A stretch of 64,000 nucleotides of DNA from a bacterium (lineage in GTDB: Bacteria > Patescibacteriota > Minisyncoccia > Minisyncoccales > JAZDGI01), in assembly GCA_043807085.1 (NCBI GenBank), contig JAZDGI010000005.1, forward strand, positions 5,816-69,815, given 5' to 3'. A program made the translations under genes and the position numbers. Below, one piece after another: positions 15,602-63,665 of this stretch (positions within the stretch are counted from its first letter, which is position 1; each line of letters begins with the position of its first letter). The notes beneath the pieces are model-generated. The model was given only the letters and a program-made list of their open reading frames with translations, had not been told where the DNA came from and searched no databases.

Positions 15602-16378
15602 ATGCCCGAATTGCCGGAGGTTGAGACGATACGGCGTCAATTGGCCCGGAAAATTATCGGCAAAAAATTAAACGGCCTGCCGGCCGGCAGGCAAGGCTGG
15701 AAAATTATCGGCGTGCGGAGAAGGGCCAAGCTTTTAATAATTGATTTTGTCGGCGGGCAAAACCTTATTTTTCATCTAAAACTGACCGGTCAGCTGATCT
15801 TTAACGGAAAACCTTCGGCGCATACCCGCAAGGTTTTTAATTTTGGCGACGGCTCGCGGCTAATTTTTAATGACGCCCGGAAGTTCGGCTGGTGGAAAAA
15901 AACGAAAGGAACGGAAAAGATAGAAGATAAATTCGGGCCGGAGGCCTTGGAAATTAGCCTTGATGACTTCAAAAGAGATTTATCCCGAAAACCGAATGCC
16001 AAAATCAAACCTCTCTTGATGGACCAAAAATTTATTGCCGGCATCGGCAATATTTATTCAGATGAAATTTTATTTGCCGCTAGAGTTAATCCCTTGCGCC
16101 GGGTAAAATCCTTGGAGGTTAAAGAGGTTGGGCGAATTCATCAAAGTATCAAAAAAATTTTAGTAGAGGCGATCAAGTGCGGAGGTTCGTCGGTTGAATA
16201 TTATCTTGACGCTTGCGGCAAGAAGGGGGACTATGTTAAGTATCATAAAGTTTATCAAAGGGAAGGCAAAAAATGCTTTCGCTGCGGCGCGAGCATAGAA
16301 AGATTAAAAATCAGCGGCAGATCCGCTCGCTTCTGCCCCAAGTGCCAGCCTTTCGGCACGGCTCAGGGCAAGAAATAA
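15602..16378 (+). CDS. mutM: Formamidopyrimidine-DNA glycosylase
   Basis: N-terminal MPELPEVE, H2TH region, C-terminal zinc finger (CFRCG...CPKC). It carries a 51-nt in-frame insertion (see the repeat at 15648..15712). Confidence 0.92.
   Translation: MPELPEVETIRRQLARKIIGKKLNGLPAGRQGWKIIGVRRRAKLLIIDFVGGQNLIFHLKLTGQLIFNGKPSAHTRKVFNFGDGSRLIFNDARKFGWWKKTKGTEKIEDKFGPEALEISLDDFKRDLSRKPNAKIKPLLMDQKFIAGIGNIYSDEILFAARVNPLRRVKSLEVKEVGRIHQSIKKILVEAIKCGGSSVEYYLDACGKKGDYVKYHKVYQREGKKCFRCGASIERLKISGRSARFCPKCQPFGTAQGKK
15648..15712 (+). repeat. GC-rich palindromic micro-element flanked by a perfect 14-bp direct repeat, in frame in mutM
   Basis: GGAAAATTATCGGC occurs at 15648..15661 and again at 15699..15712. 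Between them lies the perfect 18-nt palindrome GCCTGCCGGCCGGCAGGC at 15675..15692. The repeat period is 51 nt = 17 codons (KIIG[KKLNGLPAGRQGWKIIG]). Confidence 0.9.
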
Positions 16379-35628: not shown

Positions 35629-36252
35629 ATGACTAAGATTAACAGGGTTATTAAAACTTTAGTCGCTTCAGACATTTTTTTACAAACGGGTTGGGGGCTG
35701 ATCGGCCCGATTTTCGCCATCTTTTTAATTGGGCAAATTGAGGGAGGAAATTTGAAGATGGTTGGTTTTGTGGCCGCTGTTTATTGGGTTGCCAAATCAA
35801 TCATCCAGCCGTTTATCGCCAGCTGGCTGGACAAAAATCATGGCGAGAAAGATGATTTTGCCTTTTTGGTAGCGGGAATGTATGTTGCCAATTTAATTCC
35901 TTTGGGTTATATTTTTTCTACCCAGCCCTGGCATATTTATGCCTTGGAGTTTGTCCGAGCTTTGGCAATGGCTTGCGTCATACCCACCTGGGCGGGAATA
36001 TTCACCAGGCATATAGACAAGGGCAGAGAAGCCTTTTCCTGGAGCTTGGAAAGCACTGGTATTGGTTTTGCCGCCGGGTTAGCCGGCGCCTCTGGCGCGT
36101 GGCTAGCCAGCATTTTCGGATTTAAAATCGTTTTTGTTTTAGTAAGTATTTTTGGTTTATTGTCCTCCTCTGCCCTTCTTTTGATCAGAAAGAATATTTT
36201 TCAAAAAGACGGCTTTGCCCCGCGCGTGCCGCCCGCCGAAAAACCATTTTAA
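35629..36252 (+). CDS. Half-size (6-TM) MFS-like membrane protein
   Basis: 207 aa, about six predicted TM helices. Its last 13 codons are duplicated at 37211..37249. Confidence 0.6.
   Translation: MTKINRVIKTLVASDIFLQTGWGLIGPIFAIFLIGQIEGGNLKMVGFVAAVYWVAKSIIQPFIASWLDKNHGEKDDFAFLVAGMYVANLIPLGYIFSTQPWHIYALEFVRALAMACVIPTWAGIFTRHIDKGREAFSWSLESTGIGFAAGLAGASGAWLASIFGFKIVFVLVSIFGLLSSSALLLIRKNIFQKDGFAPRVPPAEKPF
36214..36252 (+). repeat. Direct repeat, copy 1 (3' end of the MFS-like gene)
   Basis: TTTGCCCCGCGCGTGCCGCCCGCCGAAAAACCATTTTAA encodes FAPRVPPAEKPF-stop. It matches copy 2 at 33 of 39 nt; the first 20 nt are identical. Confidence 0.9.
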
Positions 36253-37210: not shown

Positions 37211-37249
37211 TTTGCCCCGCGCGTGCCGCCAAGCGAGAAACCGTTTTGA
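37211..37249 (+). repeat. Direct repeat, copy 2 (orphan duplicate of the MFS-like gene 3' end)
   Basis: TTTGCCCCGCGCGTGCCGCCAAGCGAGAAACCGTTTTGA would encode FAPRVPPSEKPF-stop. It lies immediately upstream of the PolX ATG at 37251. Confidence 0.9.
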
Positions 37250-37250
37250 T

Positions 37251-38978
37251 ATGAAGAACCAAGATTTGGCGAAAATATTTTATGGAATAGCGGATTATTT
37301 GGAGATGGATAGGGTGGCTTTTAAGCCCTTTGCCTGGCGAAAAGTTGCCGTTGTTTTGGAGGCAATGAAAGAAGACGTCGGAGAGGTTTACAAAAAAGGA
37401 GGAAGGAAGGCTTTGGAGGAAATTCCGGGGGTTGGGAAAAGCATTGCTGAAAACATAGAAGAATATCTGAAAACAGGCAAGGTCAAATATTATGAAAGAT
37501 TTAAAAAAAGCCTGCCGATAAATTTACCGGAGATGATTGCGGTTGAGGGGTTAGGCCCTAAAAAAGCCAAGGTTCTTTATGAAAGATTGGGAGTGAAAGA
37601 TTTAAAAACATTGGAAAAGGCGGCTAGGGCCCATAAAATCGCTTCTTTATTCGGATTTGGAGAGAAAACTGAAAAGAATATTTTAGAGGGGATTAACTTT
37701 TTGAAAAGAAGCAAGGGGAGATTTTTGCTGGGAGAAATTCTGCCCAAAGCCGGCGAGGTTTTGGAAAAGCTAAGAAGCTTGAAAGAATCGGAAAAGGTGG
37801 ATATGGCCGGTTCTTTGCGGAGAAAGAAAGAAACTATTGGCGATGTTGATTTTCTGGCTATTTCCAGGAAGCCCAAGCCGATAATGGATTTTTTTGTTTC
37901 TTTGCCCGGAGTTGTCAGAGTCTGGGGCAAGGGTTTGACAAAAACGTCGGTAAGAACGGAAGAAGGCTTTGATATGGATATCAGGGTAGTGCCCAAAAGA
38001 AGTTATGGTTCAGCTCTTCAGTATTTTACAGGGTCTGTGGATCATAATATTGCCACGAGAAAAATTGCCATGGACAAGGGACTGAAGCTTTCTGAATACG
38101 GGCTTTTTAAGGGCTCAAAAATGATTGCCGGCGCTAGCGAAGAGGAGATTTATAAAGCTTTGGGCATGGAATGGATTGAGCCGGAAATAAGGGAAAATCA
38201 GGGTGAAATCGCCGTCGCCCAAAACAATCAACTCCCGAAGCTGATTAATTATAAAGATATTAGGGGTGATTTGCACTGCCATTCCGATTGGGCCGGCGGA
38301 AAAAATTCTATTGAAGATCTGTCAGGAGCCGCTCAAAAAATAGGCTATGAATATCTGGGCATAGCCGACCATACAAAGTTTTTGAGGATTGAACACGGGC
38401 TGGATGAAAGAAAATTAGAATTGAGAAATAAGGAAATTGACAAAATAAACGAAAAATTTAAGGTTCAAGGTTCAAGGTTCAAGATATTGAAGGGTTGCGA
38501 GGCGAATATTTTGAACGACGGCTCAATTGATATTAAGGATGATGCCTTGGCGAAGTTAGATTTTGTTATCGCCGGTATTCACTCCTCTTTCAAAATGGCG
38601 AAAGAAAGAATAACAGAAAGAATAATAAGGGCGATGAGAAATCCCAATGTAGATATTATTTCTCATCCGACAGGTCGAATCTTGAAAAAAAGGGATGAAT
38701 ATCAGATTGATTTCAGCAAAATTTTAAGAATCGCCAAGGAAACCGAGACTATTCTGGAGATAAATTCTTATCCTGAAAGATTAGATTTAAACGACCAGAA
38801 TATCAGGCGAGCCAAAGTCGCGGGAGTAAAAATGATTATTAATACCGACGCTCACCGGAAGGATCAGCTGGTACTTATGGAATTGGGCGTTTCCCAGGCC
38901 CGTCGCGGCTGGGCCGAGAAGGAAAACATAATAAATTGCCGGCCATTAGATAAACTATTAAAATTTTTTAAGAAATAA
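37251..38978 (+). CDS. Family X DNA polymerase with C-terminal PHP domain (PolX)
   Basis: The start is set to ATG 37251 (MKNQDLAKIFYGIADYLEM). HhH motifs, catalytic GDVDFL and PHP motifs (GDLHCHSDW, ADHT, NTDAH). The track's TTG at 37212 lies inside repeat copy 2. Confidence 0.92.
   Translation: MKNQDLAKIFYGIADYLEMDRVAFKPFAWRKVAVVLEAMKEDVGEVYKKGGRKALEEIPGVGKSIAENIEEYLKTGKVKYYERFKKSLPINLPEMIAVEGLGPKKAKVLYERLGVKDLKTLEKAARAHKIASLFGFGEKTEKNILEGINFLKRSKGRFLLGEILPKAGEVLEKLRSLKESEKVDMAGSLRRKKETIGDVDFLAISRKPKPIMDFFVSLPGVVRVWGKGLTKTSVRTEEGFDMDIRVVPKRSYGSALQYFTGSVDHNIATRKIAMDKGLKLSEYGLFKGSKMIAGASEEEIYKALGMEWIEPEIRENQGEIAVAQNNQLPKLINYKDIRGDLHCHSDWAGGKNSIEDLSGAAQKIGYEYLGIADHTKFLRIEHGLDERKLELRNKEIDKINEKFKVQGSRFKILKGCEANILNDGSIDIKDDALAKLDFVIAGIHSSFKMAKERITERIIRAMRNPNVDIISHPTGRILKKRDEYQIDFSKILRIAKETETILEINSYPERLDLNDQNIRRAKVAGVKMIINTDAHRKDQLVLMELGVSQARRGWAEKENIINCRPLDKLLKFFKK
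38460..38483 (+). repeat. Heptanucleotide tandem repeat (AAGGTTC x3 + AAG) in frame in PolX
   Basis: Three perfect 7-nt units (21 nt = 7 codons) encode KVQGSRF(K) between PHP motifs. Confidence 0.95.
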
Positions 38979-44594: not shown

Positions 44595-47500
44595 ATGGAT
44601 GTAAACTTTCCGGAGCTTGAGGAGAAAATTTTAAAATTCTGGCGGGAAAACCTGATTTTTAAAAAATCAATTTCACGGCGCAAAAAGAGCCGCAATTTTG
44701 TGTTTTACGAGGGCCCGCCCACGGCCAACGGAAAGCCTGGAATCCATCATGTTTTGACCAGGGTTTTTAAAGACATTATCTGCCGCTATAAAACTATGCG
44801 GGGTTTTAGAGTTGAGAGAAAGGCCGGCTGGGACACTCACGGCTTGCCGGTAGAGCTGGAAGTTGAAAAAAAATTAGGGTTGAAAAATAAAAAAGACATT
44901 GAAAAATACGGCATAGCTAAATTTAATAAAAATTGCCAAGAATCGGTTTGGCAATATAAAAAAGAATGGGAGAAATTAACCGACAGGATTGGTTTTTGGC
45001 TTGACGAGGACAATCCGTACGTCACCTATCAAACGGAATACATTGAAACCGTTTGGCATATTTTGAAGCGGATTTACCAAAAAGGCCTGCTTTATCATGA
45101 TTACAAGGTGGTTCCTTATTGCCCAAGGTGTGGAACTACCTTATCCAGCCACGAGGTTGCCCAAGGATACGAAAAGATCAAAGATCCTTCTATTTTCGTC
45201 AAATTCAGGATTAAAAATCCGGAATTCAAAGATTCTTATTTGCTGATTTGGACCACTACTCCCTGGACGTTGCCAGGCAACGTGGCGATTGCCGTTAATC
45301 CCGAGATGGCTTATGCCAAAATCAAATCGCCAGATATAGAAGAGTATTTAATTTTAGCTAAAGACAAAATAGCCGAACGGCAAATAAAAGGAAAAATAGT
45401 CCAAGAATTTAAGGGAAAGGATTTAGCCGGATTGGCTTACGAGCCAGCGTACGCTGACGAGGATTTTTCTAAAAGCGCCTACAGAGTCATTTTGGCTGAT
45501 TTTGTTTCTTTGGAAAGCGGCACTGGTTTAGTTCATATTGCCCCGGGTTTTGGATTGGAAGATATGGAAGCTGTAAAAAATCAAAACACAGAATCAAAAA
45601 GGCAGGGTCTGCCCGAACTCCCAATTTTATTGCCAGTGAACGAAGAAGGGAAATTCGCGCTTGACGCCAAGAAGTGGGCCGGAATGTTTGTCAAAGAAGC
45701 GGACCCTTTGATTATTAACGATCTGAAAGAAAGGGGTTTTTTGTTCGCTGAAGAATTATACGAACACGATTACCCTTTTTGCTGGCGCTGTCATTCTCCG
45801 CTGCTTTATTACGCCAGAAAATCTTGGTTTATTCAGACGACCAAAATTAAGGACGATCTTATTGGGAATAATCAAAAAATAAATTGGGTTCCGGTTCATT
45901 TGAAAGAAGGAAGATTCGGCGAGTGGTTAAGAGATTTGAAAGACTGGGCTTTGACCAGAGAAAGATATTGGGGAACTCCCCTGCCTATTTGGCAATGCAA
46001 GACCTGCGGAAAGCAGGAAATTATCGGCTCTAGAAAAGAACTATTCGGCCGAGCTTCTTCGGGCAGCAGATATTTTATTTTCCGCCACGGGTATTCTTTA
46101 AGGCAGATTAAAAAGGTATCTTCCTGCTGGCCGGAAAAAGTACCATTTCCCTTGACGAAAAAAGGAGAGAGGGAGGTTGAGGTCGCGGCGAAAAAACTAA
46201 AAAATAAAAAAATTGACTTAATTTTTTCCTCCGACCTGTTGAGAGCGAAGCAAACCGCCCGAATTATCGCCAAAGAAACCGGAGCCAAAATAATTATCGC
46301 CAAGCAATTGAGGGATTATAACGTGGGAGTTTTTAACTATAAAAATCCGAAATTATCTTGGGAATATTTGGAGAAAAGCGAAAATCCGATTTTAACGAAA
46401 TTGCCCAAGGGAGAGAGTCTGGCAAATATCAGAAAAAGAATGTACGAATTTTTAAAAAGAGTAAATGAAAAATACCCGGCAAAAAACATTGTTATCGTGT
46501 CTCACGAGCTCCCTTTGACGATTTTAGAGCAGACCTTAAGCGGCTTGGAATTAGAAGAAATATTGAAACAAAGGGCGCAGCGGAAAATAAATCCAATCGC
46601 TACGGCCGAATGGCGGGAGATAAAGTTTAAAACCCTTCCCTTTAACGGCAATTACGAAATAGATCTCCACCGCCCTTATATTGACGAAATGAAATTTCAG
46701 TGTCTGGGTTGTCAGGGTGAGATGGAAAGGGTTTCTGAAGTTATAGATTGCTGGTTTGATTCGGGCTCTATGCCCTTTGCCCAGGCGCGCTGGCCGTTCA
46801 GCGGAAACTTGAAGCCTGAACCCTCTGGCGCGAAACCTCCGAAACTGTTCCCGGCAGATTATATTGCCGAAGGGGTTGATCAGACGAGAGGCTGGTTTTA
46901 CACCCTATTGGCGATCTCCACGCTTTTAGGATTTGGTTCTCCCTACAAGAATGTCATTTCCTTGGGCCATATTTTAGATGAAAAGGGAGAAAAAATGTCA
47001 AAATCGAAAGGTAATATTGTTGATCCGTGGTATATTGCCGGCCGGTACGGGGCAGACGCCGCCCGTTGGTATTTTTATACCGTCAACCAGCCCGGCGAAG
47101 CGAAATTGTTTTCAGAGAAAGATATTGACCAGGCATTAAAAAGATTTATTTTGATATTTTGGAATTGTTTTACCTTCTGGGAAACATACAAAAAAAATTC
47201 AAAAGTCAAAAGCCAAAAGACAAAACCAAAGAATGTTTTAGATAGGTGGATTATTTCCAGGCTGAACCGGCTGGTTTTAGAAGCGACCGAATCTTTGGAC
47301 AGATTTGATGTGACAGGCGCGGCTAGAATTATTGAAAATTTTGTAATCAACGATTTGTCTTTGTGGTATATTAGAAGATCCAGAAAGCGGTTCAAAGAGA
47401 TTGAGAATTTTTTAGCCCTTATTCTTTTGGCTGTATGCAAACTTGGCGCGCCCTTCTTTCCTTTTTTGAGCGAAGAAATATACCAAAAAATTTCCGGTTG

Positions 47501-48065
47501 CCGATTTTCAGCTTCCAAATCAGTGCATTTGGAAAAGTGGCCGATAGCGGATAAAAAATTAATTGATAAAAAACTGGAGGGAAGCATGAACGAGGTTCGC
47601 GAGATAGTCAATTTAGGATTGAGAGAAAGGGCGAAGTCGGGCATTAAGGTCAGGCAGCCTCTCGGTAAATTACAAATTACAAATTGCAAATTACAAAAAG
47701 AGGAAGAACTTCTGGGGCTAATAAGAGAAGAGGTTAATGTTAAGGAAATTACTTTCGGCGAGTCTTTAAGGCTAGATACGGAAATAACCGAAGAACTTGA
47801 AAGGGAAGGAATTGTTCGGGAAGTTGTTCGTCAGATTCAGGGAATGAGAAAAGAGGCAAAATTGCGGCCGAAAGATAAAATTTCAGTGAGCTATTTAGCC
47901 GAAGGCGAATTGGGCGAAATTTTGGAAAAAAGTAAAAGTTTGATGCTGGAGGAGGCGAATATAAGCGATTTAGTCCGACGAAGAGAGATTTCGGGGGAGT
48001 TTCTCGCTCAAAAAGAAATAAAGGTCGGCGATGAAAAATTATGGCTGGGAATTAAGAAAATTTAA
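44595..48065 (+). CDS. ileS: Isoleucine--tRNA ligase with an inserted histidine-phosphatase (PGAM-like) domain
   Basis: 1156 aa. HIGH-type motif (GKPGIHHV), CP1 editing domain, KMSKS. Residues ~487-685 (nt ~46053..46655) form an extra domain with RHG, LTKKGE, SSDLLRAKQTA and SHE motifs. Confidence 0.95.
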   Translation: MDVNFPELEEKILKFWRENLIFKKSISRRKKSRNFVFYEGPPTANGKPGIHHVLTRVFKDIICRYKTMRGFRVERKAGWDTHGLPVELEVEKKLGLKNKKDIEKYGIAKFNKNCQESVWQYKKEWEKLTDRIGFWLDEDNPYVTYQTEYIETVWHILKRIYQKGLLYHDYKVVPYCPRCGTTLSSHEVAQGYEKIKDPSIFVKFRIKNPEFKDSYLLIWTTTPWTLPGNVAIAVNPEMAYAKIKSPDIEEYLILAKDKIAERQIKGKIVQEFKGKDLAGLAYEPAYADEDFSKSAYRVILADFVSLESGTGLVHIAPGFGLEDMEAVKNQNTESKRQGLPELPILLPVNEEGKFALDAKKWAGMFVKEADPLIINDLKERGFLFAEELYEHDYPFCWRCHSPLLYYARKSWFIQTTKIKDDLIGNNQKINWVPVHLKEGRFGEWLRDLKDWALTRERYWGTPLPIWQCKTCGKQEIIGSRKELFGRASSGSRYFIFRHGYSLRQIKKVSSCWPEKVPFPLTKKGEREVEVAAKKLKNKKIDLIFSSDLLRAKQTARIIAKETGAKIIIAKQLRDYNVGVFNYKNPKLSWEYLEKSENPILTKLPKGESLANIRKRMYEFLKRVNEKYPAKNIVIVSHELPLTILEQTLSGLELEEILKQRAQRKINPIATAEWREIKFKTLPFNGNYEIDLHRPYIDEMKFQCLGCQGEMERVSEVIDCWFDSGSMPFAQARWPFSGNLKPEPSGAKPPKLFPADYIAEGVDQTRGWFYTLLAISTLLGFGSPYKNVISLGHILDEKGEKMSKSKGNIVDPWYIAGRYGADAARWYFYTVNQPGEAKLFSEKDIDQALKRFILIFWNCFTFWETYKKNSKVKSQKTKPKNVLDRWIISRLNRLVLEATESLDRFDVTGAARIIENFVINDLSLWYIRRSRKRFKEIENFLALILLAVCKLGAPFFPFLSEEIYQKISGCRFSASKSVHLEKWPIADKKLIDKKLEGSMNEVREIVNLGLRERAKSGIKVRQPLGKLQITNCKLQKEEELLGLIREEVNVKEITFGESLRLDTEITEELEREGIVREVVRQIQGMRKEAKLRPKDKISVSYLAEGELGEILEKSKSLMLEEANISDLVRRREISGEFLAQKEIKVGDEKLWLGIKKI
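47199..47226 (+). repeat. Heptanucleotide-periodic repeat in ileS (TCAAAAG TCAAAAG CCAAAAG ACAAAAC)
   Basis: Four 7-nt units read through as SKVKSQKTKP. Confidence 0.8.
47667..47694 (+). repeat. Heptanucleotide tandem repeat in ileS (AAATTAC x2, AAATTGC, AAATTAC)
   Basis: Four 7-nt units with one substitution encode KLQITNCKLQ. Confidence 0.95.
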
Positions 48066-55374: not shown

Positions 55375-56826
55375 ATGTCAACCAAGACAACCAAGAAAAA
55401 AACATTTTATATTACCACCAGCATTCCCTATGTTAACGCGCCGCCGCACATAGGTTTTGCCCAGGAACTGATCCAGGCGGATGTTTTGGCCCGCTATCAC
55501 CGCGGCTTGAGCGAAGACGTTTTCTTTCTGACCGGTACCGACGAGAACGGCTTAAAAAACGCGCTGGCGGCTGAAAAAGCAGGGAAGACTCCCCAAGAAT
55601 TTGTTGATGAAATATCAGAAAAATTTAGGCTTTTGACAAAAAGTTTGAACCTATCAAACGACGATTTTATCAGAACTAGCGACAAAAAGAGGCATTGGCC
55701 AGCCGCTCAAAAAGTTTGGTCTCTGCTAAAAGAGAGCGGGGATATTTACAAAAAGAAATACAGGGGCCTTTATTGCGTCGGCTGTGAAGCTTTTATCAAA
55801 GAAAAAGACCTTGTTAACGGACAATGTCCGGTTCATCTGAAAAAGCCAGAAGTTTTAGGGGAAGAGAATTATTTTTTCCGGCTGTCAAAATACGCAGCTT
55901 TAGTAGAAAAGGAAATCAGAGAAAATAAGATAAAAATCGTCCCGGAATCCAAAAAAAATGAAATTTTGAATTTTATAAGTCAGGGAGTTGAAGATGTCAG
56001 CTGCTCCCGCTCAAAAGAGAAGTTAAAATGGGGAGTGCCGGTTCCAGGCGACCAAAACCAGATAATTTATATCTGGCTGGAGGCGCTTTCAAATTATATT
56101 TCTGCTTTAAATTACGCTTCAAACGGAGACAAATTTAAAAAATTCTGGCCGGCCGATATTCATTGCATGGGAAAAGATATTTTCCGTTTTCACGCCTTGC
56201 TCTGGCCAGCGGTGCTTGTGTCTATTAAATTGCCTTTGCCCAAGACAATTTTTGTACGCGGATTTATGACTTCCGGCGGTCAAAAAATGTCAAAGTCATT
56301 AGGCAATGTTGTTGATCCTTTTGAACTGGTAAAGAAATATGGGACAGACGCTGTTCGCTATTTTCTTTTGCGGGAAATTCCAGCGACAGAGGATGGAGAT
56401 TTTACTATTGAAAAATTTGAACAGAGATATAATAGCGATTTGGCAAGTGGTTTAGGGAATTTAGTAGCCAGAGTAATAACGATGGCTAAAAATCCGAAAT
56501 CCGAAATCCGAAGCACGAAACAAATTCAAAATTTTAAATTCCAGACAACAATAAATAAAACTAAGAAAGATTACGAAAAATCCTTAGAAGAGTTTAGGTT
56601 TAATGAGGCGTTGATTGCGATTTGGGAGTTGATTAGTTTTTGCGACGAATATATTGAAAAAGAAAAGCCGTGGGAGGGAGGAAAAAATGATGTTATTAGC
56701 GGTTTGTTATTCGTCATTAGCCAGCTAGCAGAATTATTAGAGCCATTTTTGCCTGAAACCGCGGAAAAAATAACTAAACAGCTTAAAATCCAAAAAAGCG
56801 AACTATTATTCCCCCGTTTAAAATGA
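55375..56826 (+). CDS. metG: Methionine--tRNA ligase
   Basis: 483 aa. TSIPYVNAPPHIGF (HIGH-type), zinc knuckle CVGCEAF...CPVH, KMSKS. Confidence 0.95.
   Translation: MSTKTTKKKTFYITTSIPYVNAPPHIGFAQELIQADVLARYHRGLSEDVFFLTGTDENGLKNALAAEKAGKTPQEFVDEISEKFRLLTKSLNLSNDDFIRTSDKKRHWPAAQKVWSLLKESGDIYKKKYRGLYCVGCEAFIKEKDLVNGQCPVHLKKPEVLGEENYFFRLSKYAALVEKEIRENKIKIVPESKKNEILNFISQGVEDVSCSRSKEKLKWGVPVPGDQNQIIYIWLEALSNYISALNYASNGDKFKKFWPADIHCMGKDIFRFHALLWPAVLVSIKLPLPKTIFVRGFMTSGGQKMSKSLGNVVDPFELVKKYGTDAVRYFLLREIPATEDGDFTIEKFEQRYNSDLASGLGNLVARVITMAKNPKSEIRSTKQIQNFKFQTTINKTKKDYEKSLEEFRFNEALIAIWELISFCDEYIEKEKPWEGGKNDVISGLLFVISQLAELLEPFLPETAEKITKQLKIQKSELLFPRLK
56490..56517 (+). repeat. Heptanucleotide tandem repeat in metG (AAATCCG x3 + AAGCACG)
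   Basis: Three perfect units and one degenerate unit encode (K)NPKSEIRST. A further 7-nt-periodic tail (AAACAAA TTCAAAA TTTTAAA) follows. Confidence 0.95.
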
Positions 56827-60152: not shown

Positions 60153-61969
60153 TAGGCTATATTGGCAAAAAAAACGCCGTTCCGATTCTAATGGAAGGGC
60201 TAAAAAGAGAAAGCTACCGAGGGTATGATTCCAGCGGCATTGTTGTGTTTGGAAACGGTAAGCCAGTCTGTATAAAGGCGGTTGGGAAACTGGAAAATCT
60301 TGAAGAGAAATTAAGCGATAACAGCCCGCAAGGAACTTTAGGATTGGGCCATGTCCGCTGGGCGACCCATGGCGGCGTAACCGAGGAAAACGCTCATCCG
60401 CATCACGACTGCAAAAATAATATCTGGCTGGTTCACAACGGCATTATTGAGAATTACAAAGAGCTGAAGAAAAAACTGGAAGAAAAAGGGCATAAATTTG
60501 TTTCTCAAACAGATACAGAGGTTATCGTCCATTTAGCTGAAGAATTTTTTAAAGGAAATTTGGAAGAAGCCATCAAAAAAACCACAGCTTTTTTAAGGGG
60601 CACTTATGGAATAGCCGCGATTTCCCGTGATGATCCTGACAAGATTGTTGTCGCCCGATTGAGCAGTCCTCTGGTAATCGGCTGGGGGGATAATGAGTAT
60701 ATGGTAGCCTCTGATCCGGCGGCTGTAATCGGCCATACTAGAACCATAACTTATCTATATGATAACGAAATAGCGACGATTACTTTGGCTGGCGGTCCTA
60801 AAATCTGGACGATAATAAAGGAGCCGATAGAAAAAAGAAAAGAAAATATAGGCTGGACCGTGGAGGAGGCTCAAAAAGGCGGCTATGCCCATTTTATGCT
60901 TAAAGAAATAATGGAAGAGCCCGAGGCAATTGAGAATGCGATGAGAGGCAGATTGGTGCCCGAGGATGGCCAGGTGAGATTGGGCGGGTTAAGTTCTGTT
61001 GGGGTTAAACTAAGAGAGATTGATAAGCTAATTTTAATTGCCTGCGGCACAGCAGCTCACGCCGCTAGAACTGGCGAATACATGCTGGAAGAATACGCTG
61101 GTATTCCGACTGAAGTTGATGTTGGCTCAGAATTCAGGTATCGAAAGCCCGTTTTGGATAAGCAGACGGCTGTTATTTGCATTTCTCAATCAGGCGAAAC
61201 AGCCGACACTTTAGCCGCTTTGCGGGAAATGAAGCAAAAAGGAATTTTGGCCTTGGGAGTTACCAATGTGGTCGGCTCAACTCAAGCCAGAGAAACTGAT
61301 GCCGGAGTTTATACCCGGTCAGGGCCCGAGATGGCTGTCGCATCAACCAAAGCTTTTATTGGCCAATTGACAACTTTGGCTATGTTAACAGTTTATTTAG
61401 GCCGGCAAAGGGATATGGCTTTGGTCATGGGCAAAAGAATTGTTGTCGAGCTTTCGAAGCTGCCTGAATTAGCCCGGCAAGTTTTGAAACAAGCGTCGGA
61501 AATAGAAAAAATTGCAAAAAAATATAAAGACTTCAAAAATTTTTATTTTATTGGCCGAAAGTATAATCATCCGGCAGCGCGCGAAGGCGCTCATAAATTC
61601 AAAGAAGTCACTTATCTTCACGCCGAAGGAGTCAGGGCGGGAGAACTGAAGCATTGCGAGCTGGCCCTAATTGACGAAAGTTTCCCAACTGTGGCCATTT
61701 GCCCTTCGGACTCGGTCTATGAAAAAATGATTTCCAATATCCAGGAAATAAAGGCCCGTAAGGGACCAGTTATCGCTATTGCCACTGAAGGCAACGAAGA
61801 GATTAAAAATTTGGTTGATGACGTCATTTATATCCCCAAAACCTTGGAAATGCTGACGCCGATTCTGTCAGTCATTCCCCTGCATCTCCTCGCTTATTAC
61901 GTGGCCAAAGAATTAGGTTACGACATTGATAAACCCAAAAATTTGGCCAAAAGCGTAACTGTTGAGTAA
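60140..61969 (+). CDS. glmS: Glutamine--fructose-6-phosphate aminotransferase
   Basis: 609 aa. N-terminal MCGIVGY, two SIS domains, C-terminal KSVTVE. Confidence 0.98.
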   Translation: MCGIVGYIGKKNAVPILMEGLKRESYRGYDSSGIVVFGNGKPVCIKAVGKLENLEEKLSDNSPQGTLGLGHVRWATHGGVTEENAHPHHDCKNNIWLVHNGIIENYKELKKKLEEKGHKFVSQTDTEVIVHLAEEFFKGNLEEAIKKTTAFLRGTYGIAAISRDDPDKIVVARLSSPLVIGWGDNEYMVASDPAAVIGHTRTITYLYDNEIATITLAGGPKIWTIIKEPIEKRKENIGWTVEEAQKGGYAHFMLKEIMEEPEAIENAMRGRLVPEDGQVRLGGLSSVGVKLREIDKLILIACGTAAHAARTGEYMLEEYAGIPTEVDVGSEFRYRKPVLDKQTAVICISQSGETADTLAALREMKQKGILALGVTNVVGSTQARETDAGVYTRSGPEMAVASTKAFIGQLTTLAMLTVYLGRQRDMALVMGKRIVVELSKLPELARQVLKQASEIEKIAKKYKDFKNFYFIGRKYNHPAAREGAHKFKEVTYLHAEGVRAGELKHCELALIDESFPTVAICPSDSVYEKMISNIQEIKARKGPVIAIATEGNEEIKNLVDDVIYIPKTLEMLTPILSVIPLHLLAYYVAKELGYDIDKPKNLAKSVTVE

Positions 61970-63665
61970 ATTTATGATTAAAGACAGCAACAAAATATTT
62001 TTGCTTGGAAATGAGGCGATAGTGCGCGGGGCTTTAGCCTCGGGCGTTGATTTTGTGGCAACGTATCCAGGGACGCCTTCTTCGGAAATCGGCAACATCT
62101 TCAATAAAATTGCCAAAGAAAACGGCGTTTATTTTGAATTTTCCACTAACGAAAAGGCGGCTTTGGAGGCTGGAATAGGAGCTTCGTTTTCTGGATTGAA
62201 AACAATGGTGGCGATGAAAAATTTCGGCCTTAACGTTTGCCTGGATTCTTTAATTCCGTTTGTTTATACTGGCAGCAAAGGAGCGACCGTTATCGTCGTG
62301 GCTGACGATCCTTCCTGTCACAGCTCGGCCCAGTCAGAAGAAAATACAAGGCCGATAGCTGATTTGGCCCATATCCCGATTCTAGAGCCGGCCGATCCGC
62401 AGGAATGTTTTGATTTTGTGAAGCTCGGCTTTGAAATTTCCGAAAAGTTTAGCCTTCCGATTTTGATCAGGACGACAACAAGAGTGGCGCATCAAAGCGC
62501 TCAAGTAAGTTTGGGCGAAATCCGAAATCCAAAACCCCTGCCTGGCCGGCAGGCAGGCGAAATCCAAAATGGCAGGTTTGTTAGAGATCAAAAAAGGTTC
62601 GTGACGATGCCGCCGCGGGTTTTGGAGATGAAAAAAGAGCTTTTGGAAAAAATAGAAAAAATCCGGCTTTTCGCTGAGCAAAACACAAAAAACAAGACAC
62701 AAAATACGAAAATAGGTATAATTACCTCCGGAGTTTCTTATTTATATGTCATGGAGGCGTTAAAGGAACTCAATTTAAATTTGCCGGCTTTGAAGCTTGA
62801 TTTTTTCTATCCTTTGCCGGAAAAGAAAATTAAAAGTTTCATTAAGAATTTTAAAAAGGTCTTAATCGTTGAGGAATTGGAGCCGTTTTTGGAAAAAGAA
62901 ATTGAAAGATTGGCAAAAGAAGCTAATTGCCGGCTTGAAATTCACGGCAAAGATTTATTGCCAATCGTCGGCGAGCTCAAACCAGAAATCGTTGAAGTCG
63001 CTATCGCCAAACTCGTCGGCAGAAAATTAGAAATTAGAAATTCGAAATTAGAAATTTCGCAGATTAAGCATCTGCCGAGGTTTTGCCCGGGATGCCCATA
63101 TCATATGGTTTTTGCAGCGATAAAAAAAGCTACTCCTTTGGATGCGATTTTTGGCGGCGACATCGGCTGTTATATGCTGGGAGCGATTCCGCCTCAAGGG
63201 CTTTACGATTACCTTTCTTCAATGGGGTCATCTATCGGCATTGGGCATGGAGTTTCCAAGGCAACCAACCAGAAGGTGATTACTTTTATCGGGGACTCAA
63301 CTTTTTTCCATGCCGGAATTCCCGCTTTATTGAATGCGGTTTTTAATAAATCAAATCCTTTGATTATTATTTTAGATAACGGCACAACGGCCATGACCGG
63401 CCATCAGCCGAATCCGGGCACAGCCGTGAAAAAAGATTCTAAATACGAATTTGAATGGAAAGGCTATGGACAAAACTCACTGGCGTCAGAAAAGCCATTA
63501 TCCATTGAGGAAATTGTTAAGGCCTGCGGCGTTAAAAATTTAAAAGTCGTTAATTCTTTCAATCTAAGCGAAGTGGAAGCTGCCGTGAAAGAATTTTTGC
63601 CGAGAGCAGAAGTTTCAGTAATAATCGCCCGGGGAATCTGCGCCTTGCTCGCCAAAAAATTATGA
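61962..63665 (+). CDS. iorA: Indolepyruvate:ferredoxin oxidoreductase alpha subunit-like (TPP enzyme)
   Basis: 567 aa. LLGNEAIVRGALASGVDFVATYPGTPSSEI, a CPGCPY motif and a TPP-binding GDSTFFHAG. It contains several micro-repeats. Confidence 0.85.
   Translation: MSKFMIKDSNKIFLLGNEAIVRGALASGVDFVATYPGTPSSEIGNIFNKIAKENGVYFEFSTNEKAALEAGIGASFSGLKTMVAMKNFGLNVCLDSLIPFVYTGSKGATVIVVADDPSCHSSAQSEENTRPIADLAHIPILEPADPQECFDFVKLGFEISEKFSLPILIRTTTRVAHQSAQVSLGEIRNPKPLPGRQAGEIQNGRFVRDQKRFVTMPPRVLEMKKELLEKIEKIRLFAEQNTKNKTQNTKIGIITSGVSYLYVMEALKELNLNLPALKLDFFYPLPEKKIKSFIKNFKKVLIVEELEPFLEKEIERLAKEANCRLEIHGKDLLPIVGELKPEIVEVAIAKLVGRKLEIRNSKLEISQIKHLPRFCPGCPYHMVFAAIKKATPLDAIFGGDIGCYMLGAIPPQGLYDYLSSMGSSIGIGHGVSKATNQKVITFIGDSTFFHAGIPALLNAVFNKSNPLIIILDNGTTAMTGHQPNPGTAVKKDSKYEFEWKGYGQNSLASEKPLSIEEIVKACGVKNLKVVNSFNLSEVEAAVKEFLPRAEVSVIIARGICALLAKKL
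62517..62569 (+). repeat. Composite: GAAATCC heptamers plus a GC-rich palindrome flanked by an 11-nt direct repeat, in frame in iorA
   Basis: GAAATCC occurs at 62517, 62524 and 62559. The hairpin is CCTGCCTG-GCCGG-CAGGCAGG at 62537..62557. GAAATCCAAAA occurs at 62524..62534 and again at 62559..62569. The segment encodes EIRNPKPLPGRQAGEIQN. Confidence 0.9.
62679..62713 (+). repeat. Degenerate heptanucleotide-periodic tract in iorA
   Basis: CAAAACA CAAAAAA CAAGACA CAAAATA CGAAAAT encodes (E)QNTKNKTQNTKI. Confidence 0.7.
63024..63051 (+). repeat. Heptanucleotide tandem repeat in iorA (AAATTAG x2, AAATTCG, AAATTAG)
   Basis: Encodes KLEIRNSKLE. The one variant unit (TCG in place of TAG) removes what would otherwise be an in-frame stop codon. 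Confidence 0.95.

Follow-up and report, generated by a model that had tools for sequence, protein, structure and literature searches.

Small dispersed repeats (SDRs) are nearly invariant, high-copy sequences of 21-27 nt that have hairpin potential, have no associated transposase gene and occur near heptamer tandem repeats. In yeast mitochondria, mobile GC clusters form short GC-rich palindromic modules within an AT-rich genome; they measure 30-50 bp, fall into several families, show presence/absence polymorphism and occasionally lie in frame, as in var1, and short AT-rich target duplications have been reported for them. The repeats SDR4-6 were reportedly described in Nostoc and other cyanobacteria by Elhai and colleagues in 2008; SDRs reach high copy numbers in Nostocales and are not known outside cyanobacteria. 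Papers that cite the SDR work state that SDR5 inserts precisely into the palindrome HIP1 (PMC4390886, PMC3116915). The REP, REPIN and SMAG families are GTAG/CGTC-tagged palindromes mobilised by RAYT transposases (PMC3116915, PMC3733652). REPs are GC-rich, 20-40 bp long and mostly intergenic, and single-stranded hairpins are believed to be the form in which they move. A subset is intragenic, above all in genes for replication and repair (PMC3733652). Rickettsia palindromic elements (RPEs; Ogata et al., 2000, Science 290:347) appear in a list given in PMC3184786. Here, we describe a 21-nt palindromic insertion in the mutM (fpg) gene of a Patescibacteria genome (Minisyncoccales, JAZDGI01). The gene lies in a 64,000-nt stretch of contig JAZDGI010000005.1 (assembly GCA_043807085.1, positions 5,816 to 69,815; G+C ~42%), hereafter the window. 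The insertion very probably belongs to a dispersed family of palindromes, represented by the 20-nt GC-rich palindrome CCTGCCTGCCGGCAGGCAGG (hereafter P20), and the direct repeats that flank it very probably are not a target duplication.

The host gene, the palindrome and the flanking repeat are arranged as follows.

15602..16378, forward strand: mutM/fpg open reading frame (ORF) of 258 aa, host of the insertion, assigned from the ORF list, Pfam and solved structures
15648..15661, forward strand: first copy of the direct repeat GGAAAATTATCGGC, encoding (R)KIIG of the motif ...L.RKIIGKK...
15675..15692, no strand assigned: perfect 18-nt palindrome GCCTGCCGGCCGGCAGGC, core of the insertion, two substitutions away from P20
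15677..15697, forward strand: insertion LPAGRQG, 21 nt or seven codons, delimited by orthologue comparison
15699..15712, forward strand: second copy of GGAAAATTATCGGC, encoding (W)KIIG of the motif ...KI.G.RRRAK...

The mutM ORF matches Fapy_DNA_glyco, H2TH and zf-FPG_IleRS in Pfam and aligns with solved Fpg structures at an E value of 5e-48. Across the repeat region it translates as RKIIGKKLNGLPAGRQGWKIIGVRR. The insertion is encoded by CTG CCG GCC GGC AGG CAA GGC, and its boundary is ambiguous by 3 nt at the flanking GGC (15677-15697 is equivalent to 15674-15694). As single-stranded DNA, the palindrome is predicted to form a stem of 7 bp capped by a 4-nt loop (-8.3 kcal/mol). The repeat has a period of 51 nt and only two matches in the window, even with one mismatch allowed. 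The first-pass annotation had located the palindrome and both repeat copies correctly, but it read them as a 51-nt (17-codon) insertion, in which a 37-nt hairpin element had been accompanied by a 14-bp target-site duplication, with a similar event in an iorA-like gene. The perfection of the 14-nt repeat and a period that keeps the frame speak for this model.

The comparison with orthologues points to a smaller insertion. The 120 closest Fpg proteins are from Patescibacteria (Nealsonbacteria, Pacebacteria and unnamed metagenome-assembled genomes); they are mostly 241-252 aa long and, the window's own record aside, 66-74% identical to the window protein. The palindrome is absent in about 110 of them, which nevertheless retain both KI(I/V)G motifs and the KKLNG spacer and read ...R(Q)L..KI(I/V)GKKL.G-.KI.G-(V/L)RRRAK..., as exemplified by P0003 (RKIIGKRLNGRKIIGVRRRAK). 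The window gene differs from these orthologues by just seven extra codons, that is 21 nt, and ten of the 17 residues formerly assigned to the insertion occur in proteins that have no palindrome, an outcome that the first-pass annotation had itself named as contrary to its model. Codon-level alignments took in 11 Fpg genes, among them genes with an empty site (L001, L167) and with a filled site (L002, L003, L165, L168). The motif encoded by the first repeat copy is found in 120 of 120 orthologues and aligns with RIVGQKI of 4cis, the Lactococcus lactis Fpg; the motif encoded by the second copy is found in orthologues without the palindrome and aligns with GKIIQGIIRRGKYL of 4cis. Because palindrome-free orthologues and the solved structure carry both motifs, the 14-nt repeat appears to be two ancestral Fpg motifs that are encoded here by identical codons, and not a duplication. 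A hand comparison of the codon listings revealed no consistent difference in flanking-repeat similarity between insert-bearing and empty Fpg genes, and the perfect identity of the two copies in the window may therefore be due partly to chance and codon bias.

In an AlphaFold model of Fpg based on 66 orthologues (mean predicted local distance difference test score, pLDDT, 89.6), residues 24-32 (NGLPAGRQG) are modelled as coil between the strands 22-23 and 33-41. The local pLDDT of this coil is ~67, the lowest of the N-terminal domain. The insertion is thus predicted to occupy a surface loop, as had been proposed before, with an inserted length of seven residues instead of 17. Between the two KI(I/V)G-type motifs, 4cis has ~22 more residues than the window Fpg. 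The palindrome sits at the exact site where the whole Patescibacteria Fpg clade is without ~22 canonical N-terminal residues, and the alignment suggests that these residues of canonical Fpg were lost in the clade at the mutM insertion site.

A second copy interrupts an ORF at the other end of the window.

61962..63665, forward strand: ORF of an iorA-like thiamine-diphosphate enzyme, the second palindrome host, assigned from the ORF list and Pfam
62516..62569, forward strand: heptamer array of GAAATCC/AAAATCC units interrupted by the palindrome, from Tandem Repeats Finder and the repeat list
62538..62558, forward strand: insertion LPGRQAG, 21 nt or seven codons, absent from orthologues

This ORF matches POR_N and TPP_enzyme_C in Pfam, and its homologues are named indolepyruvate ferredoxin oxidoreductase subunit alpha in their sources. 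The palindrome, CCTGCCTGGCCGGCAGGCAGG at 62537-62557, equals P20 with one extra G in the loop and folds into an 8-bp stem with a 5-nt loop (-9.5 kcal/mol). Orthologues read ...LGEI(Q/R)NPKS(K/E)I(Q/R)K..F..., to which the window protein adds the seven residues LPGRQAG. The two copies of the flanking repeat CGAAATCCAAAA (62523-34 and 62558-69) are units of the heptamer array. They appear to be older than the insertion, because the orthologue L162 shows the intact array, GGC (GAAATCC)x4 GAAAG, uninterrupted and palindrome-free, at the empty site. Deletion of the 35-nt repeat period breaks the reading frame, and deletion of a 42-nt period yields a protein six residues shorter than the closest orthologue. 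The first-pass annotation was therefore right that a palindrome of the mutM family stands in iorA next to a direct repeat, but the repeat is part of a pre-existing array and not the footprint of a target duplication.

An exhaustive listing of GC-rich hairpins identified the mutM and iorA copies as the only family members in the 64 kb. The window has just seven local direct repeats (12 nt or longer, within 70 nt). Because two of just seven such repeats bracket two of two palindromes, the association between palindrome and repeat is not a product of chance; the rarity of such repeats in the window counts in favor of target duplication, even though both the 14-nt and the 12-nt repeats appear, from the comparisons above, to pre-date the insertions. 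Another of the seven, AATTATCGCCAA, is a perfect 12-nt direct repeat (46262-46273 and 46292-46303) with 30-nt spacing and no palindrome separating its copies. The other GC-rich palindrome of the window, CCCGAAGCTTCGGG (19924-37), was rejected as an insertion: it codes for GRNPEASG, a conserved loop in subunit c of ATP synthase. Two GC-rich islands ~1 kb apart (36215-36240 and 37212-37235) share the 19-mer TTGCCCCGCGCGTGCCGCC and possibly represent paralogous genes or a repeat. Further in-frame heptamer arrays lie at 38460-38483 (AAGGTTC), 47194-47225 (AAAAGTC), 47667-47697 (AAATTAC), 56490-56512 (AAATCCG) and 63024-63056 (AAATTAG). They hold 3-5 copies each, sit inside ORFs of 488-1164 aa and are translated into low-complexity stretches (e.g. 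KNPKSEIRS and KLEIRNSKLEI). Among the tandem repeats of the window, a period of 7 is the most frequent; three such units add up to 21 nt, which is also the length of each palindrome insertion.

P20 recurs far beyond this genome, and more widely than the first-pass annotation had proposed. The earlier suggestion of a dispersed tiny hairpin element, inserted relative to orthologues, is largely borne out. The mutM and iorA copies are both variants of P20. As a single strand, P20 pairs into a stem of 8 bp around a CCGG loop; in the 21-nt versions this loop gains a base, which may be T, A or G, while the stem is kept. A scan of one genome per species (596 Gb) with the pattern CCTGCCKGN{0,1}CCGGCAGGCAR returned at least 120 loci. 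Exact P20 occurred in at least 86 of these, in unrelated contexts, compared with ~0.5 expected at equal base frequencies. Among 2.9 million viral contigs, P20 was present in 35 stretches, and three control palindromes of identical composition in 0, 0 and 1. The family in genomes is thus not a chance collection. The 16-nt core of the mutM copy, CCTGCCGGCCGGCAGG, recurs in the unrelated loci L014, L024 and L054, and the iorA 21-mer recurs identically in an unrelated 204-aa ORF (L030), again encoding LPGRQAG.

The taxonomy of carriers was read from the record titles of 80 loci among the matches listed. Patescibacteria contribute ~23 (including Saccharibacteria, WWE3, Uhr-, Wolfe-, Davies- and Doudnabacteria) and Bacteroidota ~21, the latter including the isolates Winogradskyella echinorum KCTC 22026 and Flagellimonas yonaguniensis and one complete Flagellimonas chromosome. 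Further carriers belong to Omnitrophota, Planctomycetota, Gamma- and Deltaproteobacteria, Nitrospirota (Thermodesulfovibrio, Nitrospira) and Chloroflexi. The G+C content of the loci among the matches listed ranges from 33% to 72%. Since no contig occurs twice among these matches, although several are 0.4-4.4 Mb long, exact copies number about one per genome among the matches listed. Clusters of copies and variants occur elsewhere: L028, a locus from a Bacteroidota genome, has six copies or variants in 8 kb, and in L137 a single phage ORF carries five 20/21-mers along 350 nt (VDLSAGQAG...LPAKQAG). A few viral contigs hold 3-7 copies each. The 29.5-kb viral contig IMGVR_UViG_3300037242_000417 (L147, L154, L155; ~60% G+C) contains six exact copies; these sit in two different longer repeat families, and one of them is preceded by GTAG, as in REPs. 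Overall, P20 usually has one or a few copies in a genome and is mostly intergenic, sometimes intragenic. Rfam matches at the gathering score in 18 loci (139 kb) were confined to tRNA and 5S rRNA, none overlapping the palindrome. A literature search found no paper containing the 20-mer or the peptides LPAGRQ, PACRQAG, RQAQGK and LSLSKH, and none describing this palindrome family, in line with the earlier statement that no described class matches it.

Most carriers are metagenome-assembled, and chimeric reads can yield perfect palindromes, so that a hairpin chimera or an adaptor-like sequence might have been incorporated during sequencing or assembly. This origin is extremely improbable. The palindrome is also present in isolate genomes and complete chromosomes, it keeps the frame in conserved genes, each site has its own flanks around an unchanged sequence, and substitutions separate the orthologous copies that come from independently sampled and processed sources (NCBI, ENA, Logan).

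The junctions of P20 bear on how it enters DNA. In L057, a complete WWE3 genome, the tRNA-Lys gene reads ...GTGGTAGA|GCAGCGGC...; 280 nt upstream, the 5' end of the gene is repeated as a 32-nt pseudo-copy with the sequence ...GTGGTAGA-P20-GCAGCGGC..., a filled/empty pair with exactly 20 nt inserted and no duplication. The pseudo-copy of tRNA-Val in L046 is similar: P20 interrupts its D-arm, adding 20 nt net, and a single base is changed. Of 106 sites, ~88% lack direct repeats of 8 nt or longer in their flanks; repeats of at least 10 nt flank 4.7% of these sites compared with 0.4% of random positions, and repeats of 11-19 nt occur at a minority of sites (e.g. L041, L106, L080 and L011). At coding sites, flanking repeats of at least 8 nt reach 19%, compared with 3% of coding controls. 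The flank statistics and the L057 pair lead us to reject target duplication as a property of the family at large. For the window itself, the minority of sites with long flanking repeats and the bracketing of both palindromes favor duplication, but the seven-codon difference, the presence of both motifs in solved Fpg structures, the frame-breaking 35-nt period and older array in iorA, and the clean L057 junction oppose it, and we regard duplication of the target as very improbable.

P20 is found at structure-prone positions. It stands at the apex of a host hairpin at 6% of sites, compared with 0.8% of control positions, and is nested in another P20, one base off center, in L033 and L062. It also lies often within tandem repeats of 7-9-nt units (TTCCACT in L041, TCTAAAA in L123, CTCTAAC in L127). 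The bases beside it are A...T at 22 of 86 sites, which extends the palindrome to 22 nt, and G...G or C...C at 25 of 86. By hand reading, the cysteine-free frame LP(A)GRQ is used by 13 of the 18 copies that lie in ORFs of 200 aa or longer, where one third would be expected, and 21-mers lie in coding DNA relatively more often than 20-mers (4/9 vs 14/93; Fisher p = 0.05).

Partial tRNA 5' copies interrupted by the palindrome occur in Patescibacteria at L057 2104-2480 (Lys), L046 3615-3787 (Val) and L029 4017-4225, upstream of, or around, intact tRNA genes. In L057, the pseudo-fragment is separated from the intact tRNA-Lys by an ORF for a 79-aa GIY-YIG nuclease; in L029, the disrupted tRNA is split into a 5' and a 3' piece, with a complete tRNA-Met in between. 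A small GIY-YIG/T5orf172 gene (L005, 71-340) is directly upstream of an Fpg gene with a loop-variant palindrome (PPAGEAG). A linked transposase or recurrent neighbor within 400 nt of 120 sites was rejected as a candidate, and the small GIY-YIG genes beside L057 and L005 are not recurrent.

The mutM codon itself is found in several states. Ten insert-bearing orthologues share the same codon position. The L002 insert, GGC|CTG CCT GCC GGC AGG CAG GGT, contains perfect P20, and those of L168 and L003 are each one substitution from it. L165 carries CCTGCCTGACGGCAGGCAGG, L005 a 21-nt loop variant (GCCTGCC-GGCGA-GGCAGGC) and L006 a decayed copy. Between the window and L002, the inserts differ by three synonymous changes, one of which moves the palindrome center by 2 nt and creates the perfect 18-mer. 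Three genes that are mutually 81-88% identical show three states at this codon: P0033 is empty (GAT GGC|CGC AAA), P0056 carries the palindrome, and P0040, 88% identical to P0033, carries a different 24-nt module, CCT TCG ACG CGG CTC GGG GCA GGT, which is GC-rich and non-palindromic. The same type of 24-nt insert is found in P0008 (L004, 523-1281) and P0040 (L166, 222-977), as PSTSLGAG and PSTRLGAG, yet these two proteins are just 74% identical. This second module, CCCTTCGACTTCGCTCAGGGCAGG, also occurs in six unrelated viral contigs. A diverged relative of it lies at the end of the window gene.

16349..16372, forward strand: C-terminal tail PFGTAQGK of Fpg, encoded by CCTTTCGGCACGGCTCAGGGCAAG, by hand alignment a diverged copy of CCCTTCGACTTCGCTCAGGGCAGG with 18 of 24 nt matching

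Most orthologues end in ...CPxCQ(K/R)(L), and a minority have the tails PIRQAQGK, PFNAAQGK or LSLSKH (P0006).

In an insert-masked neighbor-joining tree of the 120 orthologues, which is weakly resolved, the ten genes with an insert are scattered over at least seven positions. This pattern could also result from a single ancient insertion in Fpg that descended vertically, was repeatedly and precisely deleted and is not mobile today; copies in other phyla would then have arisen independently from CCTG/CAGG-type simple sequence or by very old transfers. Palindromes are deletion-prone, the codon position is constant, the copies differ by partly synonymous substitutions, with a decayed version in L006, and the protein tree is weakly resolved, all of which suit such a history. 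The core is moreover built of CCTG/CAGG, and a single T-to-G change turns one perfect palindrome into another. Against it stand the three states at one codon in closely related genes, including an unrelated dispersed module, the identical 20-mer in at least 86 unrelated contexts with matched controls nearly absent, the nested copies, the clean insertion in a tRNA pseudo-fragment, and the multi-copy viral contigs with up to six copies in 29.5 kb. On this evidence, descent from one ancient insertion is unlikely, though far from negligible.

The conservation of the inserts bears on a possible function. L002 and L003 share 20 of 21 insert nucleotides at a gene-wide identity of 70%, and 6 of 6 synonymous codons are identical compared with ~50% gene-wide; the window and L002 share 18 of 21 at a gene-wide 72%. 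This better conservation of the insert in Fpg is compatible with constraint, recent re-insertion or plain descent. A palindrome may be bound by a conserved dimeric DNA-binding protein, as parS is. P20 could likewise be a selected motif that serves as a binding site of a dimeric protein, as an RNA hairpin acting on stability or translation, or as a useful peptide loop of Fpg and IorA. The near invariance of the sequence across phyla, the retention of the stem while the loop base varies, and the L002/L003 comparison agree with selection. However, the neighboring gene and the position are inconsistent, and the site flanks show no T-run after the hairpins, by which an intrinsic terminator was rejected. 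Copies stand in unrelated proteins, in pseudo-tRNA fragments and in one another, their peptide frames differ, decayed copies persist, and ~110 of the 120 Fpg orthologues do without the insert. A selected function of this kind is therefore improbable.

In its behavior, P20 appears most like the cyanobacterial SDRs; it can also be likened to REP/REPIN sequences and, for the in-frame colonization of genes, to RPEs. Like SDRs, P20 is short (20-21 nt), nearly invariant, dispersed and hairpin-forming; it would insert precisely and without target duplication, as at palindrome centers, nests in itself and sits in heptamer arrays. The titled P20 carriers (80 loci among the matches listed) are not cyanobacteria, however, and P20 is low-copy, multi-phylum and present in viruses. 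In-frame colonization of conserved enzymes is also prominent for P20, a further difference from SDRs. With REPs it shares a 20-21-nt GC-rich palindrome and a 7-8-bp stem, but not the GTAG/CGTC tag: the flanks at 86 sites show just the A/T or G/G preference, and an adjacent GTAG was noticed in three cases (L044 and two copies in L147). P20 does not appear to be high-copy per genome (two in 64 kb; none repeated per contig among the matches listed, although a few viral contigs hold 3-7 copies), and it is the same in distant phyla, whereas REP families are lineage-specific. The 400-nt surroundings of 120 sites showed no RAYT gene. No REPIN-like doublet organization was noted for P20, although no systematic test of this was made. 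Like RPEs, which are selfish DNA tolerated in the surface regions of conserved proteins, P20 is palindromic DNA lying in frame in protein-coding genes (mutM, iorA and 18 further sites in long ORFs). RPEs, however, are ~105-146 bp long, Rickettsia-specific and add 35-50 residues, whereas P20 has 20-21 nt, adds seven residues and crosses phyla. Miniature inverted-repeat transposable elements (MITEs) and other transposons duplicate their target and have terminal inverted repeats around an internal sequence, ~50-500 bp in all. P20 is far smaller, a unit of 20-22 nt consisting of the arms alone, and no target duplication was found in the orthologue comparison, the L057 pair or the flank statistics. 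Yeast GC clusters resemble P20 as short GC-rich palindromic modules that occasionally lie in frame, but they are organellar, eukaryotic and larger.

The reading that we favor, which joins the description of the family to a mechanism, has a probability of roughly 0.6. According to this reading, P20 would be a tiny mobile module, non-autonomous, whose copies reach new sites without target duplication. The likeliest route would be a single-stranded hairpin intermediate, or template switching in replication. Insertion would favor loop-extruding DNA, that is, positions between short direct repeats, in tandem arrays, at hairpin tips and in other P20 copies. In coding DNA, selection would then retain additions of a multiple of three (21-mers, or 20+1), the cysteine-free LP(A)GRQ frame and tolerant surface loops, of which the mutM site would be an example. 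Mobility by way of single-stranded or hairpin DNA, taken as a specific mechanism, is a tentative proposal that we hold at somewhat less than even odds.

Several results weigh against mobility. No mobilizing enzyme or donor mechanism was identified in the ORFs within 400 nt of 120 sites, where no family recurs among 491 ORFs in an all-against-all BLAST. Two metagenome scans showed no strain-level presence/absence polymorphism: one that sought empty sites with the window's own flanks gave no match, nor did a scan of JGI metagenomes for the Fpg start with P20. BLAST searches of cultured phage and plasmid collections with a doubled 22-mer returned no exact P20, and weak partial matches in GC-rich hosts. 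The copy number is low, with two in 64 kb and no repeated contig among the matches listed, which is unusual for a proliferating element. Non-coding sites do not have significantly more flanking repeats than non-coding controls, and the enrichment at coding sites could be mere co-occurrence in indel-tolerant linkers. The neighbor-joining tree of the ~250-aa Fpg is poorly resolved, and the modest excess of insert conservation in Fpg leaves vertical inheritance with repeated precise loss as a reading of the mutM data.

A wider proposal would place P20 and CCCTTCGACTTCGCTCAGGGCAGG together as products of a so far undescribed cross-phylum process of DNA insertion, which would act without target duplication, on structure-prone DNA and repeatedly at the same codon. 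We consider it possible but doubtful. The agent could be an enzyme, either virus-borne or shared by many lineages, that acts on hairpins of single-stranded DNA; template switching is another candidate. Such a process would write fixed GC-rich sequences of 20-24 nt, repeatedly at the same permissive codons, as in mutM.

Among the repetitive DNA of bacteria, no class is less understood than repeats of ~20 nt. REPs, SDRs and RPEs are lineage-specific and high-copy, whereas P20 is identical across distant phyla and viruses and low-copy. Mobility of P20, if real, would imply that an insertion mechanism or a vector of very wide distribution has so far escaped notice. Such modules make spurious indels in alignments and may serve as markers of recent DNA turnover. 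If P20 is mobile, this would also account for some of the strange short GC-rich insertions and tails (LPAGRQG, ...AQGK) seen in predicted proteins of environmental genomes, those of candidate phyla included.

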